DNA of 64,000 nucleotides from Escherichia coli (GTDB lineage: Bacteria; Pseudomonadota; Gammaproteobacteria; Enterobacterales; Enterobacteriaceae): NCBI RefSeq assembly GCF_003018255.1, contig NZ_CP027440.1; one strand, given 5' to 3'. The number at the start of each line of letters is the position of its first letter. Position 1 is the first letter of the stretch. Below the pieces are notes generated by a model. It did no database searches, was not told where the DNA came from, and saw only the letters and a list, made by a program, of their open reading frames with translations. Positions 5,026 through 61,920 of this stretch are shown piece after piece. The position numbers and the translations under genes are program-made.

Positions 5026-5043
5026 CGCTTTGGCGGTGTAATC

Positions 5044-5076
5044 GGTAAAAAGGTGCAGTACATCGCACCTTTTTAC
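5044..5076. terminator. Bidirectional hairpin terminator between convergent yjcE and actP
   Basis: GGTAAAAAGGTGC-AGTACATC-GCACCTTTTTACC: stem flanked by A-run and T-run. Confidence 0.65.
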
Positions 5077-5107
5077 CGTTGGTCAGGTGACCAGAGGCTA
5101 GTGGAGA

Positions 5108-16176: not shown

Positions 16177-16517
16177 TCATCTGGTGATGAAGATTATGTT
16201 ATTGAGCTGCATAAAAAATAATCGAATGAACATATGCCAAAAATAATCACCAATCAGTATTATTGCAGATTAAACAAATAAAAATCTTTCCATAACAAAT
16301 GGTTATTCATTAATCCTGCCATAAACTCGCGTTATTATGCATTAATGCAGCGAAAAGCTCTGTTGTTAAAGGGTTGCGCAACATACCGCGCAAATGATAC
16401 TGATCATAAGCGTTAAAAAAATCTACAAACCAACGCAACACAATTCATGCCCTGGCAGTATGTCACGTTCTCGCGTTTCTGAACGGGGAACGGCGCTCCA
16501 TTGAGGAAGTTATTCTG

Positions 16518-26216: not shown

Positions 26217-26387
26217 ATTAAATACATCCTGTCTGCTGCGAACAATATCTGTAGTGAATATCAATATCCATTGAAGGCGTCAGTATGGCTATTTTCTCGA
26301 TGAATAAAAATAGATTTATTCAGCCACCGCATTCATAACTTATATGTTTTATGTATTAATTTGTTGTATATATTTTTAAAATAAATG

Positions 26388-34805: not shown

Positions 34806-35162
34806 CACGTTCTCTTGTCCTTGAATTGAAGACGCCACTATATCACCACAGCAAGAACAGAAAAGATGCTGGCAACTTCACAAAAAAATAAAATTTATAA
34901 AGTTTGTTTTGTTGTGAATAATGGAGAGTGGCTTAAAATTTCATTTCATTTAATCACTTTAAAAACATGATGTTATTGTTTTCCTGGTTTATTAGATGAT
35001 AGATGTTGCTGGATAGTGAGTGTCTTTAACGCTATTGCGCTGCCAGATGTAACTCTGTAAAACAGATCGGGAAGGCGGATTTCATCGATTTTGGGTGTTT
35101 TTAATTCATTTACATCACAAATGTTTTTTGATTGTGAAGTTTTGCGCGGGCGGGGAAGATGA

Positions 35163-44136: not shown

Positions 44137-44916
44137 TCAGATAAAGTGCTTACGCAACCGTTGAGAGAGGAAATCCAGCAGGCTGACCGTGACGATAATC
44201 AGCACCATCAGGGCGCAGGTTTGCTGGAACTGGAAACCGCGAATCGCTTCCCACAGGGTGACGCCGATCCCGCCCGCGCCGACCATGCCAACAACGGTGG
44301 CCGAACGGACGTTGGATTCGAAGCGATAGAGGGAGTAGGAGATCAGCAGCGGCATCACCTGCGGCAGCACGCCGTAGAGGATCTCTTCGAGCTTGTTGGC
44401 ACCAGTGGCGCGAATACCTTCCACCGGGCCGGGTTCAATTGCTTCTACCGCTTCGGAAAGCAGTTTGGAGAGCACGCCGGTGGTGTGGATAAACAGCGCC
44501 AGTACGCCAGCGAACGGACCGAGACCGACGGCGACCACGAACAGCATGGCGAAGACCATCTCGTTAATGGCGCGGCAGGCGTCCATCAGGCGGCGAACGG
44601 GCTGATACACCCACCACGGCACCAGGTTTTCAGCGCTCATCAGGCCGAAGGGGATGGAGAGAACGACTGCCAGCGCGGTGCCCCAGACGGCGATTTGCAG
44701 CGTGACGGCCATTTCGGTGAGGTAATCCTGCCATTGGCTGAAATCGGGCGGGAAGAAGTCGGCGGCGAAGGTTGCCATGTTGCCGCCGTCTTTGATCAGC
44801 GTAAGCGGGGCCATTTCCGCGCCCTGCCACGAGACGACCAACACGGCGAGAACAATGGCCCAGCTCAGAAGCGAGAACCAGCTGCGCTTGGGTGGGGCGA
44901 TGGTGATGGTTTGCAT
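44137..44916 (-). CDS. phnE: Phosphonate ABC transporter permease (intact allele)
   Basis: Single continuous ORF (259 aa from MQTITIAPP; 280 aa from an upstream in-frame start), with no frameshift. Confidence 0.85.
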
Positions 44917-44931
44917 GTTTGGCTCCGGTCT

Positions 44932-45018
44932 GTAGGCCGGATAAGGTGCTTGCACCGCATCCGGCATCAACGTCTGCACATTGTCGGATGCGACGCCGGG
45001 GCGTCTTATCCGACCTAC
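44932..45018. repeat. REP pair inside the phn operon (phnD-phnE spacer)
   Basis: GTAGGCCGGATAAGGTGCTTGCACCGCATCCGGCA and GTCGGATGCGACGCCGGGGCGTCTTATCCGACCTAC. Confidence 0.8.
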
Positions 45019-47427: not shown

Positions 47428-47471
47428 GATGGTGACCTCAGTTAAGAGAAGCCCGTTAAGTGTAGTTCGAA

Positions 47472-47580
<109 letters not shown>

Positions 47581-47586
47581 ATACAA

Positions 47587-47922: not shown

Positions 47923-48323
47923 GTGGATTTCCTCAAAAGTCAGCAGGGCAAAAGCGCCAAAAAACGGCAGATTGCCGAAAAAGGCCGCAATTATACACAA
48001 AATCCCTGAGTTTGTCGGGGGTACTGCTGATTTTAGACGACGATCGTTTTCATTTGAAAGGAAACGCAAAAAGAAAATAATCTTTTTGCCTCCATTTATT
48101 ATTTAAGATAAGGTTAATGCTCTACTCGTTCTTTTTTTAATTCACATGATGTTTTTATCTTTCTGACGTTTTAAACGTATTGGAAGATGTTATTTGTTCT
48201 AATAAAAAACAACACGCTAAATATAAAATTATTTCCTGCAGTAATTATAAAAGCCGAAAACAGAACTCAAAAACAATCTGGCTAAATAAAAGTAATAAAA
48301 TTTGCTTTAAGGAAGAATATTCT

Positions 48324-54470: not shown

Positions 54471-55139
54471 TTAGTTTTCCTCATTTGCGACCAGCATATA
54501 GCCAAAGCCGCGCACGGTGCGGATACGGGCTTTGCCCACTTTGTCGCGCAGATTGTGGATATGCACTTCCAGGGTGTTGGTCGAGGGTTCATTGTCCCAG
54601 TTATAGATGTCGTTGTAGAGAATTTCCCGATGCACCGGACTGCCTGCTTTGAGCATTAACCGTGACAGCAGAGCATATTCTTTGGGCGTCAGAATCAACT
54701 CTTCACCGCCCATCCATACCTGACGGCGACCCATATTCAGCGTCAGATTGCCAACAATCAGCTCACTTTCGCCCTGATTATTATGGCGTCGTAGCAGGGC
54801 GCGGATACGGGCGTGTAACTCTTCCAGCGCAAAAGGCTTCACCAGATAGTCATCGGCACCGACATCCAGCCCGGCGATTTTGTCGGTCAGCGTATCGCGA
54901 GCGGTGAGGATCAGTACCGGCAGGGTGTATTTTTTCTGCCGGATACGGGCGAGAAAATGCAGTCCATCTTCGTCGGGTAACCCTAAATCCAGTACCACCA
55001 GGCTGTAATGACCGGCCTCAAGGCTTTGTTCCGCCATCCGCGCGGTTGTCACGCCATCGCACGCGTAGCCTTCGGTTTGCGCCGCCAGAATTAATCCCTG
55101 CAATAACAGCGTATCGTCTTCAACAATCAGAATTTTCAT
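54471..55139 (-). CDS. basR: Response regulator BasR/PmrA (OmpR family)
   Basis: 222-aa ORF; start overlaps eptA stop. Confidence 0.92.
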
Positions 55140-56779
55140 TCACTCACTCTCCTGCAAGTTTGCAGAATATCATCCGCAGCCTGGTAATACTTCGTCTCAA
55201 CGCCAGTTAATCCCAATAGCGTGGAGAATAAATTATCTTGTGAATAGTGTTGCGTTTGCGCCTGTTTTTGCAGGCAGTTCTGGTCAACCTGATACCGTTT
55301 TTGATAATCCTCCGACAGCCACAGCAGCATCGGCACCTGTTTTTGGCTATCCGGGGCGATGGCATAAGGCAGACCGTGCAGATAGATGCCATTTTCACCT
55401 AACGACTCACCGTGGTCAGAAAGATAAACCAGGCTGGTGGTAAATTTATCCTGATGTTCTTTCAGCAGATTAATCGCTTTATCAACAATATAGTCGACGT
55501 AAACCAGCGTGTTGTCGTAAGTGTTCACCAGTTGCTCTTTGGTACAGGTCTGGATCTCGTTAGTGTCACAGGTTGGGGTAAATTTCCTGAACTGCGGCGG
55601 ATAGCGGTTGTAATAGGTCGGACCGTGGCTGCCGATGGTGTGTAAGACAATCACGCCATCACCCTGCAGGTTATTGATGTACTCTTCCAGCCCGTGGAAC
55701 AGCACTTCGTCATAGCATTCGCCGTTGATGCACTGACCTGGCAGATTCAGCGCGGTGACGTTCTGGTGAGGTACGCGATCGCAAACGCCTTTACAGCCGC
55801 CATCGTTGTCATTCCACAGCACGTTGATGCCCGCTCGCTGAATGATATCCAGCACGCCTTCCTGGTGCTGTGCCAGCTCTTCTTTGTAGTGCTCACGCGG
55901 CATATCCGAGAACATGCATGGTACTGAAACTGCCGTTGCCGTGCCGCAAGAGGCGGTATTAGGGAAATAGACCACGTTATCTTTTGCCAGACGAGGATTG
56001 GTTTCGCGTGGATAACCATTCAGCGAGAAATTCTCTGCGCGCGACGTTTCTCCGACGATCAAAATGGTCAGGTTTTTACGTTTCCCATTTTGCATTAATG
56101 GGTTGCGGTGAGCATCTTCACCAATGCGTATCAGTGGCAGGTTGGCTGACCGCTGGTGAGAGTACCACGACCAGCTAGCAACAATGCTGTTGGACGGGCT
56201 TAAGGATTTCACCAGCTCTTTGTTGTTGCGAAACAGCGAGGCATAGTCTTTGTAGAACAGTGCGGCAACCAGCAGAATCAGCAGTACAGAAATCAGGATG
56301 TTGGCCCCGCGGAAAAGAACGCTGCGCAGGCGTGAGGTGGTGGGGGTGATTTTGATCCAGCAGGCAATAATCGCGGCTAACACGCCACTTAACCCCAGCG
56401 TTAATAACATTCGTGGCGTCATCAGGGCATAACTTTCCGCCGGCGTAGTATCAATGATATTGGTGATCATTGAACGGTCGATGACGATGCCATAGGTCAT
56501 GATGAAATATTGTGCAGCCGCACCGACCAGAATAAACAGGCAGGCGAGTGGACGATTAAGCCATAAGAAAGAGCCTAGTGTCAGGACAATATTAATCACG
56601 CTGAATGCGACGACCGGCATCGACAAGAAAACCAGCACGTTATGCAGTGAATCCAGCGGTAACACCTGTAGCACCTGTTTAAAAAAGGCGATATTCAGGC
56701 AGACTGAGATATAAAAAGTAGCAAGTAATAACCAGGAGAATAAATTTAAAGAGGGTCTTTTTAGTAGGCGCTTCAACAT
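55136..56779 (-). CDS. eptA: Lipid A phosphoethanolamine transferase
   Basis: 547 codons from [13 protein letters not shown]-terminal 5-TM domain plus sulfatase-like domain. Confidence 0.9.
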
Positions 56780-56882: not shown

Positions 56883-58220
56883 TTAATCTTTGCTTATTGG
56901 TGCATCTAAGGGATACGGGTTTTTATGCAGCCGGTTGTAATTCAGCGCATACATGGCGGTGATTACCATCAGAGTGACAAATGACCACATAACCTCTTTC
57001 GCGCCGGACCCTACCACGGCCCAGATGCAGTAGAGGAAGGCAATGGTAGTCACTGCCAGGTATGCCGGGCGTGCTTTACCAAAGTGACCGTGGCCGAGCA
57101 GTAGTAACGCCGCACAGGTGTAAAGATATGGCACCAGTGTAAAGATGACCGACACGGAAGAAACCAGACCGAATTCTTTGGTCGCGTTTGGCGAAATGCT
57201 ACTGAGCTGGAAGATGGTCATCAAAATACCGACGATAATCAGCCCCGCCACTGGCGTGCCCGCTTTATTAACACGGGCAAAAATCGGTGGGAACAGTCCG
57301 TCATCGGCAGCGGCTTTCGCCGTTTGACCCGCCAGCAACGTCCAGCCGCCCAGTGAACCTAAGCAACCCGCAGCTGCGCAGAAGGAAACAATGGCCCCGG
57401 CGGTGTCACCCAACGCCATCCGTGCGGCATCACCGAATGGCGAAGCAGAAACGCGCAGTGCGGCATTAGGGATCATCCCCATAATCGCGGTGGTAGAAAG
57501 TACATAGCAAACGGCAGCAATCAATACCCCGCCAATGGTGGCGATAGGGACGTTGCGTTTCGGGTTTTTCACCACACCTGCGGCAACGGAGGCACTTTCC
57601 ACACCGATGAACGACCACAGCGTAACGTTAAGGGTACTTTGAATCGCACCGAAGGTGCCCAGACCGCTGACGTTCCATGCCGCCATATAGGTTTCACCAC
57701 GGAACCAGAACCAGCCAAATACGGCAATCCCGACGATGGGGATCAGCGCCAGCACGGTAGCAACGGCCTGTACGCGGGTGATCATTTTCGGACCGACAAT
57801 GTTCAGCAGGACGAAGATCCACAGCACCACGACGCAGGTGATGGTTAATACCAATGGGTCTTTCAGAATCGGGAAGAAGTAACTTAAATATCCTACGCCA
57901 ATGACCACCATGGCGATATTGCCGATCCAGCAGGCCAGCCAGTAGAGGACGTTGGTTTGATAACCGAGAAACGGGCCAAAGCAGCGGCGGGCGTAAGCGT
58001 AAGAACCACCAGGACTTGGGTCGAGGAACGACATTTTGGCGTATACCATCGAGAGCCCCAGCGCACCGATAATCGTCACCAACCATCCATAAATGGCAAT
58101 CCCGCCAGTGGAGGCCAGGTTTGCAGGTAACAGAAAAACACCTGACCCCATAATATTCCCCGACACCATCAGGGTGACGGGGATTAAGCCCACTTTGTGA
58201 GCATCAGCATCCGAAGACAT
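56883..58220 (-). CDS. adiC: Arginine:agmatine antiporter (APC family)
   Basis: 445-aa 12-TM ORF. Confidence 0.92.
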
Positions 58221-58356
58221 AATTAAACTCCTGCGAAGGCGAGCTTCGTGACAATAAATTACGTCGTATCATACGCCTGCATTCGATAGTTGAATTATTA
58301 TCGGCCGGGTTATCGCTGATGCCGTTATTAATATAGCTCTTCGTTAAGGTTAAAAA

Positions 58357-59118
58357 TCAGGCGACAGTGCGTTCTCTGTGCTGACTAACATAATGCAGCG
58401 GCGTCATACCGTAGAAGTCTTTAAAGACAGAAATAAAGTACGACGTACTGTTGTAGCCGCAGGACTGTGATACCTGAGAGATATTTTTACCGTCCATCAT
58501 TAATTCATTTACGGCATAGCGCATGCGGCAGGTGGTGATTATTTGGCTATAACTGGTGTTTTCGCTTTTCAGCTTTTTCTTTAACAGACTTGGGCTAAGA
58601 CATAAACAACTGGCTACCATACTAAGATTCCAGTCTTTGTGGATATCGCTTTCAATAATTTGATAAACGCTGTCACTTACACAATTACGTAACATATACA
58701 TCATTAGTGAAAGGAATTTTTTACTGTCGAGAAAACGGGATAGCACAGTGAATAATAATGCACGTGTTCGTTCCTTTTCTGACTCAGTTTCAGCGGGCAT
58801 CATGCTATGTTGCGCGGCAACGCGAAAGACGTCTGGCGTCAGGCATGGAAGGGTGAGGATGGGCGTAGCGCTACGTTGCCATACTGGTATTTGCGAGAGA
58901 TCTTTATTCAGAAACCGGAGGTAATCTTTGATGATGTCGTGACTAATATGAGCAACCAAAGTGTTATTAAGAGAGGAGACGTCGATAATATTATTTTCAC
59001 AATTTAATAACGCCATATGGTTAGCTTTAAGGCTAATAGGTTCTTTCCCATTCACCCTTATCCAGACATCTTTTTCAGTCAATAAAACAATACAAGGTTG
59101 GTCGCTGCAAATCCTCAT
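58357..59118 (-). CDS. adiY: AraC-family regulator AdiY
   Basis: 253-aa ORF with C-terminal AraC-type HTH; AT-rich coding and flanks. Confidence 0.88.
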   Translation of the reverse strand: MRICSDQPCIVLLTEKDVWIRVNGKEPISLKANHMALLNCENNIIDVSSLNNTLVAHISHDIIKDYLRFLNKDLSQIPVWQRSATPILTLPCLTPDVFRVAAQHSMMPAETESEKERTRALLFTVLSRFLDSKKFLSLMMYMLRNCVSDSVYQIIESDIHKDWNLSMVASCLCLSPSLLKKKLKSENTSYSQIITTCRMRYAVNELMMDGKNISQVSQSCGYNSTSYFISVFKDFYGMTPLHYVSQHRERTVA

Positions 59119-59312
59119 ACATGTACTCCTGAGTGCGAATAAAAGACCAGTTCTCGCTAAAGCGAAGCGATACCGGGAAATGGTTATATAATTGTATGAT
59201 GAATATAAACATGCATAAAAATAACGAGTTTTACTAATATTACAAATTTTTATAGTAATTTCTCATGTACATATTTTTTTACAGGCTAAAAAAAGGATAA
59301 ATAACAGGCAAA

Positions 59313-59340
59313 AAAAAAGCGCGGGGTGGGACCGCGCAAA
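59313..59340 (-). terminator. Rho-independent terminator downstream of adiA
   Basis: Minus-strand GCGCGGTCCCACCCCGCGC followed by TTTTTTTTT. Confidence 0.7.
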
Positions 59341-59454
59341 AAGTATGACATTTTTTGTTTGCAGCAATTTTTATGAAAACGTTGCCATACTTAAAAGGCC
59401 TCAAGCCAGGCGGCGTAATGTTATTTAACAATTACGCCTTCAGCGGAATAGTGG

Positions 59455-61722
59455 TTACGCTTTCACACACATAACGTGGTAAATACCGTCAATAATTTCT
59501 GTCCCTTCTGTTTCGTGTTCAAATCCAGGGAAATGATGGTCCCAGGATTGCAGCGAGCGTAAATAACTTACTTGCGGACTGTTTTTATCGCCGAAGTTTT
59601 CACCAGACAGCAGCATCGGGATTCCTGGCGGATACGGGATAACTGAGTTTGCCGCGATACGTCCTGGCAGATTTTCAATGGATACCAGTTCGACATTGTT
59701 GTCGACAATCGCGTTGTACGCTTCACGCGGGGTGATTTCCGCCACCGGCAGGCCGGAATAGGCTTCGTTCAACCGTGCGCCAGGGTTGTTTTCTTTCAGC
59801 CAGGCAAACATGGTGTCACCCAGATCGTGAATCCCCATGTTCGCGTAAGTGTCAGGATATTGTTCAACAAGTTCCGGCATCACCTGCGCCAGCGGTGTGT
59901 TGGCGTCATAGTGGCGTTTGAAGGAGCAAAGGGTGTTAACCAGAGTCCCCCATTTCCCACGGGTTACGCCCATAGAGAACAGGAACATAATTTGGAAGTC
60001 AGTGGTGCGGGTAGGCACAATGCCGTGGCGACCAAGCCAGGCAGTGACCAGCGCCGCCGGAACACCGGTTTCTTCCAGTTCACCATCTTCACCCATTCCC
60101 GGAGCAAGGATGCTGACTTTAATCGGGTCGAGCATACTCCAGTTATCCGGAATATCTTTGAAGCCGTGCCAGCTTTCGCCCGGATGCATTACCCAGCAGT
60201 CCTGAACGGTGGTCAGCAGTTTGGTTGGTGCGTCAGCAAAGTCATAGGTTTTGCCGGTTTGTGGGTCGGTGACGACTTCTTTGTTCCACGGTTTGAAGAA
60301 CCAGCTACCGTCAGCGGTGAACTCTTTATACAGCCGCGCCATCGCCTGACGAAAATCAACCGCTTCGTCGATCACTTCCTGCGTCAGTGACAGGCCGCTG
60401 TTGCCGTCCATCATCGACACCGCCACGTCGTTGGATGCGCAGATGGCATACAGCGGGGAGGTGGTGGCATGCATCATGTAGGCCTGGTTGAAGCGGGAGA
60501 AGTTAATCGCCCCACGACCTTCACGTACATGAATATAAGAGGCCTGTGACAGTGCATTCAGCAGTTTGTGGGTGGAGTGGGTGGCGAAAACGGTAGGACC
60601 GTTGTGATCGCCAGGTTCGCCGCGCATGGCATAGTGATCGGCATAGATCGGGTTGAAACGTGCATAGCCGTACCAGGCTTCGTCAAAGTGCAGACGATCG
60701 GAGGTTTTTTCCAGCAGATCCTGCGCTTCTTTAGCGTTATAACACACGCCGTCATAAGTACAGTTGGTCACCACGCAGTAAGACGGTTTTTGCCCGGCTT
60801 TGTCTTTAGTCAGCGGGCTTTCACTGATTTTCTTCTGCAAGGTTTCAGGTTGCATTTCCTGCGGATAGATTGGCCCGATAATGCCGTAGCGGTTGCGGCT
60901 TGGCACCATGTAGACCGGTTTCGCGCCTGTCAGCATCAAGCCTTGTTCGATGGATTTATGGCAGTTACGGTCAACGACCACGACATCGTTATCGGTCATG
61001 CAAGCCTGCATGATAGTGCGGTTAGAGCCGGAAGTACCGACGACTACCGACCAGGAGCGATCGGCACCAAATACGCGTGCGGCATATTTTTCGCTTTCGC
61101 CAAATGCGCCAGTATGGTCAAGCAAAGAACCGAGGGAAGTGCGTTCGATGCCCATGTCGGTGCGGAACAGATTTTCACCATAGTAGTCATGGTAGAAACG
61201 TCCGGCGGGTGTTTTGGTAAAACCAACGCCACCCTGGTGGCCTGGCGCTGCCTAGGAATATTCATGGATGTCGCTATATTTCATCAGCGCGCTGAACAGT
61301 GGCGGCAACAGTTGCTGGCGGTAGCGGGTCATCGCGGCAACGGCGCGTCCGGCGATAAAGTCGGCGGTATCTTCCAGAATCCAGGCGAATTCATCGACAA
61401 GCTCCAGCAGATCCCGGTCCATTGCGGCGAGGGCTTTTTCCCGATCGCCCAACAGGAAGACCGGCACGTTTTGTTGGCGCTCATGAAGCTTACCGATCAA
61501 TTGTCTGACGTTTTGATGTTCGTCCGGATGTTCCATTTGATAGCTGAACATCAGGCAGTCAATGGCTTCGTTTGAAGAGAGAATGGCAAAACCATCATCA
61601 AAGGAGGTGGATTTAATCACGGTAACATTTTGCTGGCTTAAAGCATCTGCCAGACGCTCAACGGCGTTACCGACCCAGGTGTCTTGATGGAGAAACTCGC
61701 TTTCAACAATTAATACTTTCAT
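59455..61722 (-). pseudogene. adiA: Biodegradative arginine decarboxylase interrupted by an in-frame amber codon (TAG at 61252..61254)
   Basis: Track ORFs of 157 aa and 566 aa are in the same frame, separated by one TAG; translation reads ..KYSDIHEYS-stop-AAPGHQGGVGFTK.., where intact AdiA has Trp (TGG) as I recall it. Everything else is in frame for the 755-codon gene. Confidence 0.8.
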
Positions 61723-61920
61723 CATTGCTTACCCGGTTATGAAGGAATCTTCGTTGCGGGCAAGTATCTTCCGGCCTTTTCGGGCTGTAAAGCGCGTGAA
61801 AAACAAACATTTTTGAAATATTTGTTTTTATAAACAATATGTTATGTGATTATTTTAAATTATTTCCACTGCTTATTATCGACGGCTAAACTATTTTTTT
61901 GGCTGATACTGATATCGTCT

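Follow-up and report, generated by a model that had tools for sequence, protein, structure and literature searches.

Conserved AT-rich control DNA and a probable Dcm-hotspot amber mutation of adiA in the Adi acid-resistance locus of an Escherichia coli strain

The Adi (AR3) acid-resistance locus of Escherichia coli, adiA-adiY-adiC, encodes a biodegradative arginine decarboxylase (AdiA), an AraC/XylS-type activator (AdiY) and an arginine:agmatine antiporter (AdiC). We analyzed this locus in a 64,000-nucleotide (nt) stretch of E. coli contig NZ_CP027440.1, referred to here as the window, in which visibly AT-rich segments around adiY and adiA occur together with a nonsense codon in adiA itself. 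A first-pass annotation of the same DNA had taken the segments for H-NS-silenced, acid-induced promoters and had supposed that the locus may be regulated normally and yet produce only AdiC and AdiY. What, then, are the AT-rich segments, and how much of the system that they would control is left? We consider it highly probable (roughly 85%) that the AT-rich patches are the ancestral, conserved control architecture of the E. coli Adi locus and that adiA has been lost through one recent mutation, W157*. Our own comparisons covered composition, gene integrity, the mutation and its context, its recurrence, and conservation; for binding by H-NS and AdiY and for the small RNA (sRNA) AdiZ, we drew on the K-12 literature.

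The AT-richness claimed for adiY, the adiY-adiA spacer and the region upstream of adiA was borne out by calculation, and the coordinates previously given for the two noncoding segments (59119-59454 and 61723/61726-61920) were correct. The guanine-plus-cytosine (GC) content of the window is 0.531, with 0.541 for pooled coding sequences (CDS) and 0.432 for pooled intergenic DNA. None of the three segments sits at the window average: the adiY CDS has a GC content of 0.413, the adiY-adiA spacer 0.351 and the adiA upstream region 0.348-0.349, and sliding windows of the same length with equal or lower GC make up only 2.3%, 1.1% and 1.8%, respectively. Among the 52 CDS that we ranked, all with 100 codons or more, adiY is lowest both in overall GC and in GC at third codon positions (GC3, 0.449), the next-lowest CDS GC being 0.464. 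When the 27 intergenic regions that are 50 bp or longer are ordered by GC, the two spacers come third and fourth from the bottom. A scan with 125-bp windows found seven islands with a GC content of 0.30 or less in the 64 kb, two of which lie in the adi locus. One of these (59178-59302, GC 0.192) is the 125-bp minimum of the whole window; the other, at 61799-61923, has a 125-bp GC content of 0.232. The A/T tracts described for these segments were likewise found, at a density of 3.0-3.6 runs of four or more A or T per 100 bp (pooled intergenic DNA, 2.0; CDS, 0.8), and the AT-rich island far upstream of adiA carries five tracts of at least 4 bp. There was no obvious 10- to 11-bp periodicity in the tract positions that would indicate A-tract phasing. 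Most of the reported interval is occupied by the adiA CDS, which has a GC content of 0.525. The two spacers belong to the AT-rich end of the normal range and are not outliers; what truly stands out is adiY itself, along with the patch directly upstream of it. Elsewhere in the window, four spacer islands with a 125-bp GC content of 0.22-0.26 match the adiA upstream block in AT-richness: 16190-16314 (nrfG/gltP), 26257-26381 (ytcA/yjcS), 34877-35001 (alsR/rpiB) and 48128-48252 (yjdM/rdcA).

The adiY-adiA spacer is a composite. Its adiY-proximal 191 bp (59119-59309, minus strand, as are the other features of the locus apart from the Dcm site) are the AT-rich island containing the adiY promoter and leader, with a GC content of 0.298 overall and 0.25 in the core. 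The remaining 145 nt (59310-59454, GC 0.421) comprise the adiA 3' untranslated region (3'UTR), with an intrinsic terminator and the position of AdiZ. The description of the spacer as AT-rich promoter DNA thus holds for the first part and fails for the second. The terminator has the form GCGCGG-N7-CCGCGC followed by a U-run, with its stem at 59337-59319, and CAUACUUUUU precedes that stem, as in the U-rich Hfq module of AdiZ. When folded, the 3'UTR forms a hairpin directly after the stop codon and leaves a U-rich stretch ahead of the terminator (minimum free energy, -39.6 kcal/mol; z, -2.5). An insertion of 11 bp relative to K-12, at 59283-59293, lies within the most AT-rich island, between the adiA terminator and adiY. 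The same insertion is present in NZ_AP025214, where adiA is intact, and in locus L017.

The region upstream of adiA also divides in two. A far-upstream AT-rich island (61796-61920, GC 0.248) reaches from the stop codon of the upstream neighbor melR (61921-62829, minus strand) to the adiA -35 hexamer, while the promoter-like core and leader at 61723-61795 have a GC content of 52%. Hence, the claim of an AT-rich adiA promoter is right for the block upstream of -35 and wrong for the core. The core contains TTTACA-17-GATACT (61763-61791, minus strand), which scored 9/12 in a consensus scan and is a pattern match only; it is the sole promoter-like site on the correct strand upstream of adiA. An AT block upstream of -35 is where both an AraC-type activator and a silencer would be expected to act. 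Might a common AdiY box be recognizable in the adiA and adiC upstream regions, the latter being the adiY-adiC spacer (58221-58356, GC 0.397)? The two share no 10-mer, no 12-mer with one mismatch and no 14-mer with two mismatches. A 9-mer, CGATAATAA, was spotted by eye in both, at about 61870-61878 and about 58288-58296. By a rough estimate it is at about chance level (expected number, ~0.2 or more), and it makes a weak candidate for an AdiY half-site.

From this anatomy and the literature, the control architecture has three AT-rich elements. The first, about 125 bp long and 25% GC, lies upstream of the adiA -35 hexamer; AdiY and, judging from published work, H-NS are expected to act there. The second is the stretch of about 190 bp, 30% GC, upstream of adiY; its K-12 equivalent is bound in vitro by H-NS, which represses adiY about 5-fold. 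The third is the adiY gene itself, with its intrinsically low GC. The adiA-proximal 145 nt form a separate module, the adiA 3'UTR and terminator, which would be the source of the Hfq-dependent AdiZ.

Is this composition peculiar to the strain, or is it older? The conservation sample came from one genome scan with AdiY and included E. albertii, E. whittamii, two further Escherichia species or cryptic clades, and a divergent E. coli. Matches in that scan were confined to Escherichia, apart from two unrelated AraC proteins, and the comparison of composition is thus one within the genus. In all sampled Escherichia, adiY has a GC content of 0.39-0.41, the adiY-adiA spacer one of 0.35-0.36 (lowest 125 bp, 0.20-0.21), and the adiA far-upstream block one of about 0.25. 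Since the same pattern recurs in every sampled member, we conclude that the composition is ancestral to the genus and not strain specific. These data also bear on whether adiY and its flanks could be an insert that entered between adiA and adiC by horizontal transfer long ago, its low GC a foreign relic and H-NS acting on it as a xenogeneic silencer. The bottom rank of adiY in GC and GC3 fits such an origin, while the flanking adiA and adiC genes are at 0.53-0.54, and the adiA-adiY-adiC order has been called unusual (PMC8989999). However, the composition is equal in every Escherichia species sampled, and AdiY has been reported in the literature from Salmonella and Citrobacter, so that any acquisition would be older than the genus and would have passed without amelioration. 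That lack of amelioration argues for functional constraint over a relic, and we regard the insert as rather unlikely.

The conserved composition could alternatively be generic, that is, the ordinary makeup of intergenic DNA with its UP-like promoter sequences, terminators and leaders, and nothing specific to H-NS. Several observations favor this and weigh against H-NS control. Four other spacers are comparable to the two adi spacers (yjdM/rdcA, 0.324; ytcA/yjcS, 0.327; alsR/rpiB, 0.356; acs/ytcB, 0.364), and the window holds five further islands at or below the 0.30 threshold. Because several unrelated intergenic regions are equally AT-rich, a high AT content is not by itself diagnostic of H-NS control. 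No match to the H-NS nucleation motif TCGATAAATT with two or fewer mismatches was found in 59119-59454 or 61723-61920, by what was a crude consensus search and not a position weight matrix; hence, the motif gives the H-NS reading no footing. In addition, the H-NS peak at adiA in chromatin immunoprecipitation on microarrays ranked last among 30 known targets, with a value of 0.39 where others reached up to 16.4 (PMC1636352). Against a generic origin stand the patch upstream of adiY, unsurpassed in AT content by any other 125 bp in the 64 kb, and the adiY CDS, which is abnormally AT-rich as well. The orthologous DNA of K-12, moreover, has published evidence of both derepression and binding: adiY mRNA is up 5-fold in an hns mutant, and competitive gel shifts show that H-NS in vitro prefers the fragment with the adiY promoter (PMC2984483). 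A further study used adiA and adiY as reporters controlled by H-NS only and treated them as H-NS silenced (PMC3794604). A purely generic composition therefore appears quite unlikely.

Where does this leave the proposal of H-NS-silenced promoters? The low GC content of the islands (0.25-0.30 versus 0.53 for the window) and their A/T tracts are those of an H-NS-silenced region, and the K-12 literature on repression agrees; the missing TCGATAAATT motif and the weak adiA peak do not. We consider H-NS silencing a reasonable reading, by homology to the near-identical K-12 locus. H-NS control of adiA and adiY has already been published for K-12, and the AT-rich islands add nothing new, being the known and conserved control DNA of an acid-resistance locus familiar from textbooks. 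What is useful is the corrected map, which separates the sRNA and terminator module from the adiY promoter and the upstream activator and silencer block from the core promoter, together with the hotspot amber mutation described below.

The activator side of this control is also known from K-12. AdiY binds the adiA and adiC promoters, but not its own, as a tetramer at pH 5.8-6.3, and it binds a K-12 adiC promoter fragment with a dissociation constant of about 120 nM at pH 6.0, as determined by surface plasmon resonance (bioRxiv 10.1101/2025.10.03.680266). An earlier gel-shift study saw no binding of AdiY to an adiC promoter fragment (PMC2984483). AdiY senses cytoplasmic pH through His34 and His60 (bioRxiv 10.1101/2025.10.03.680266), and both residues are present in the AdiY of this strain, as read from the translation. 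By analogy, H-NS, AdiY and AdiZ would be expected to behave in this strain as they do in K-12.

We then asked what remains of the genes under this control. The adiC gene (56883-58220, GC 0.541) is intact, a full-length match to its K-12 counterpart at 97.98% nt identity, and its product has no differences from K-12 AdiC. The adiY gene (58357-59118) is also intact, and AdiY differs from the K-12 protein by one substitution, V136L. The adiA gene (59455-61722), a full-length match to K-12 at 98.8%, carries one amber codon: at 61252-61254, TGG of codon 157 of 755 has become TAG (W157*), and position 61253 of the plus strand is T where K-12 and strain H1 have C. The nonsense codon noted at first pass was thus confirmed, and the state of the genes agrees with the supposition that the locus may produce only AdiC and AdiY. 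With intact AdiC and AdiY in the order adiA-adiY-adiC, the locus is recognizably an Adi (AR3) system, but one lacking the intact AdiA decarboxylase. Apart from W157*, the 55 K-12 genes that we placed on the window have no premature stop; the UGA at codon 140 of fdhF encodes selenocysteine. The truncation point lies between the N-terminal wing domain (PF03709) and the pyridoxal phosphate domains (PF01276 and PF03711). Could translation resume downstream? Reinitiation at Met190 would open a frame of 566 amino acids, but we rejected such a rescue: no Shine-Dalgarno sequence precedes the ATG, and the fragment would have no wing domain. Thus, AR3 is probably nonfunctional in this strain, with AdiY and AdiC still encoded and the decarboxylase not. 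The amber codon predicts an AR3-negative phenotype in which the antiporter and the activator remain encoded.

The mutation appears to be recent. The 3.7-kb interval spanning adiY and adiA (58221-61920) is present at 80% coverage or more in 5,402 of 5,426 complete E. coli genomes, and its closest match among them is that of strain H1 (NZ_AP025214), at 99.7% identity and with adiA annotated as intact. W157* is the sole difference between the adiA gene of the window and that of H1, and the event is recent on that ground. The DNA upstream of adiA, including the far-upstream island, is identical to that of H1, and the adiY-adiA spacer differs from it at two positions: the terminator U-run is longer by one T, and there is one single-nucleotide polymorphism (SNP). 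The K-12 locus (b4117-b4115) is 98-99% identical at the nt level and has the same gene order and the same neighbors (eptA and melR); its AT-rich islands, terminator and promoter-like site are also the same. Relative to it, the differences are W157*, the 11-bp insertion in the adiY-upstream island and the extra T in the U-run.

How did the amber codon arise? On the plus strand, the wild-type sequence at 61252-61256 is CCAGG, a Dcm site, and the changed base, at 61253, is its inner C, the one that Dcm methylates; judged by its context in intact alleles, the site has been mutated to CTAGG. Deamination of 5-methylcytosine gives C>T, as is known from the chemistry of Dcm and very-short-patch repair (PMC2715241). 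Hence, the change from CCAGG to CTAGG has the form expected of 5-methylcytosine deamination. The dcm and vsr genes lie outside the 64-kb window, and Dcm activity in the strain is assumed, which counts against this origin. The remainder of adiA offers a wider comparison. The gene has 16 Dcm sites. Of the 32 deaminations that could occur there, 10 would give an amber codon, whereas the nonsense substitutions possible in the whole gene number 238. All four nonsense alleles verified at the DNA level (W114*, W157*, Q163* and W224*) fall within that class of 10, whose other six members are at codons 16, 350, 413, 562, 641 and 727; one more truncated product, of 193 amino acids, is outside the verified set and might reflect a contig end or a stop at a non-Dcm position. 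The classical amber hotspots at CCAGG in lacI show the same C>T at the inner C of CCWGG, giving CTAGG and TAG, and the same recurrence. Unlike alleles of that laboratory reporter, those of adiA are natural alleles of an acid-resistance gene, and adiA illustrates how Dcm methylation channels loss-of-function mutations into a few codons. The sequence of events would run from 5-methylcytosine deamination at a Dcm site to W157* and the loss of the decarboxylase, which would switch AR3 off while AdiY and AdiC could still be made.

If the site is a hotspot, has the mutation occurred more than once? The exact 157-amino-acid AdiA product is recorded from 196 contigs, some of them labeled Shigella boydii, and nine further loci carry the same G470A change (L003-L008, L013, L016 and L017). 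W157* stands on at least six haplotype backgrounds, among them three matched pairs of amber and nonamber alleles: the window and H1; L004 and K-12 MG1655, which differ at 2 of 8,474 nt; and L013 and L012, which differ at 4 of 9,701 nt, L012 having instead an 8-bp deletion between two CCAGG repeats. Of the other backgrounds, L003, L005, L006 and L007 form one group, while L008, L016 and L017 are each distinct. SNPs located 20-22 bp to either side of the amber site occur in all four allele combinations with it. Recurrent mutation thus appears far more parsimonious for W157* than shared ancestry. Although only a single base separates adiA from its nearest intact allele, it is highly improbable that faulty sequencing or assembly produced the amber codon or that it marks a single inherited lineage, given the 196 contigs, the nine more loci with G470A, the matched backgrounds and the four allele combinations.

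Among the 5,426 RefSeq complete E. coli genomes, a 39-mer of the wild-type site matched 5,202, and the W157* 39-mer matched none (5,202 being evaluable). A W114* 39-mer matched one, strain H22, in which adiA is annotated as a pseudogene with an internal stop, and a Q163* 39-mer on the K-12 background matched none of the 5,426. W224* occurs in loci whose product is labeled Shigella flexneri K-227/K-272. Together, the other adiA lesions (W114*, Q163*, W224* and the 8-bp deletion) are spread over L010, L011, L012, L014, L015, L018, L027 and L028-L033. Some W157* lineages (L006 and L007) have acquired further adiA stops or frameshifts; L006 additionally has a split melA and an adiC whose called product is shorter by 23 residues. 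These findings are consistent with continuing decay of the locus after the first hit in those lineages.

Does the locus nevertheless remain normally regulated, as had been supposed? The comparison with K-12 and H1 supports intact cis elements alongside intact adiY and adiC. Normal regulation is doubtful on two counts, both inferred: feedback through cytoplasmic pH, and Rho polarity. Regarding the first, deletion of cadA, which encodes a proton-consuming decarboxylase, raises adiA promoter activity (PMC8989999). Since AdiY senses the cytoplasmic pH that AdiA activity raises, loss of AdiA may by analogy hyperactivate the adiA and adiC promoters. Regarding the second, the approximately 1.8 kb of adiA mRNA left untranslated has C-rich, G-poor stretches, with a C/G ratio of up to 3.0 at mRNA nt 1053-1310; this RNA could load Rho, which may lower the output of AdiZ.

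AdiZ is made from the adiA transcript: in Salmonella and E. coli, RNase E processes the adiA 3'UTR into this Hfq-dependent sRNA (bioRxiv 10.1101/2025.06.06.658255). According to the same study, the module of a terminator preceded by a U-rich stretch is kept in Escherichia and Shigella, the E. coli isoforms are about 80 and about 130 nt long, and Salmonella AdiZ has no promoter of its own. The 145-nt 3'UTR of the window fits both isoforms, and the region is near-identical to that of K-12, where AdiZ has been detected. What sets the window apart is the premature stop that the parental mRNA carries about 1.8 kb upstream. Since the Salmonella sRNA lacks a separate promoter, Rho polarity may reduce the output of AdiZ here. 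Rfam holds no AdiZ family. A scan of 58000-62200 against Rfam returned a match to a Burkholderia sRNA over the terminator, at 22.5 bits against a gathering threshold of 43, which we took as chance.

Perhaps the repeated loss of adiA reflects more than a mutational hotspot? A known precedent is the cadA "black hole" seen in Shigella and in enteroinvasive E. coli, where an acid-resistance decarboxylase gene was likewise lost repeatedly and by different lesions. Unlike in the case of cadA, nothing found here points to interference of AdiA or agmatine with virulence, and some carriers of the adiA lesions are labeled E. coli. Relaxed constraint combined with the hotspot could also account for fixation of these alleles. 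AR3 is active in some Shigella, according to the passage of PMC4229854 that cites Casalino 2010. Our literature searches on adiA pseudogenes or convergent adiA loss in Shigella returned nothing relevant. Taking these points together, we raise as a tentative idea, to which we give somewhat less than even odds, that at least four Dcm amber alleles, with W157* arising at least six times, represent an undescribed convergent loss of the AR3 decarboxylase that is possibly pathoadaptive like that of cadA. The H-NS- and AdiY-controlled DNA, AdiY and AdiC would have been kept, and AdiZ perhaps silenced via Rho polarity. If the recurrence does reflect selection in Shigella-type lineages, Adi would be a second convergently lost decarboxylase system after cadA. 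S. flexneri reportedly has no arginine-dependent acid resistance (Lin 1995), and recurrent adiA loss might explain that lack.

Several minor features of the window lie outside the adi genes. The window is collinear with K-12 from yjcE to melA (K-12 4.28-4.343 Mb), with per-gene nt identities of 92-99%, and no insertion sequence elements were found in its 64 kb. The yjcF gene, which in K-12 occupies 1.3 kb between yjcE and actP, is missing at 5026-5107, where there is an 82-bp spacer instead. The phnE gene (44137-44967) is an intact open reading frame of 831 bp without the 8-base addition that turns phnE of K-12 into a pseudogene, and the genes from phnP to phnK are 93-95% identical to those of K-12, compared with about 98% for their neighbors. 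The yjdN-yjdM spacer (47428-47586) is 159 bp long here and 657 bp long in K-12. Finally, eptA (55136-56779), the neighbor of adiC, is 91.9% identical to its K-12 counterpart at the nt level compared with 98-99% for the flanking basR and adiC genes, a divergence that suggests an imported allele.

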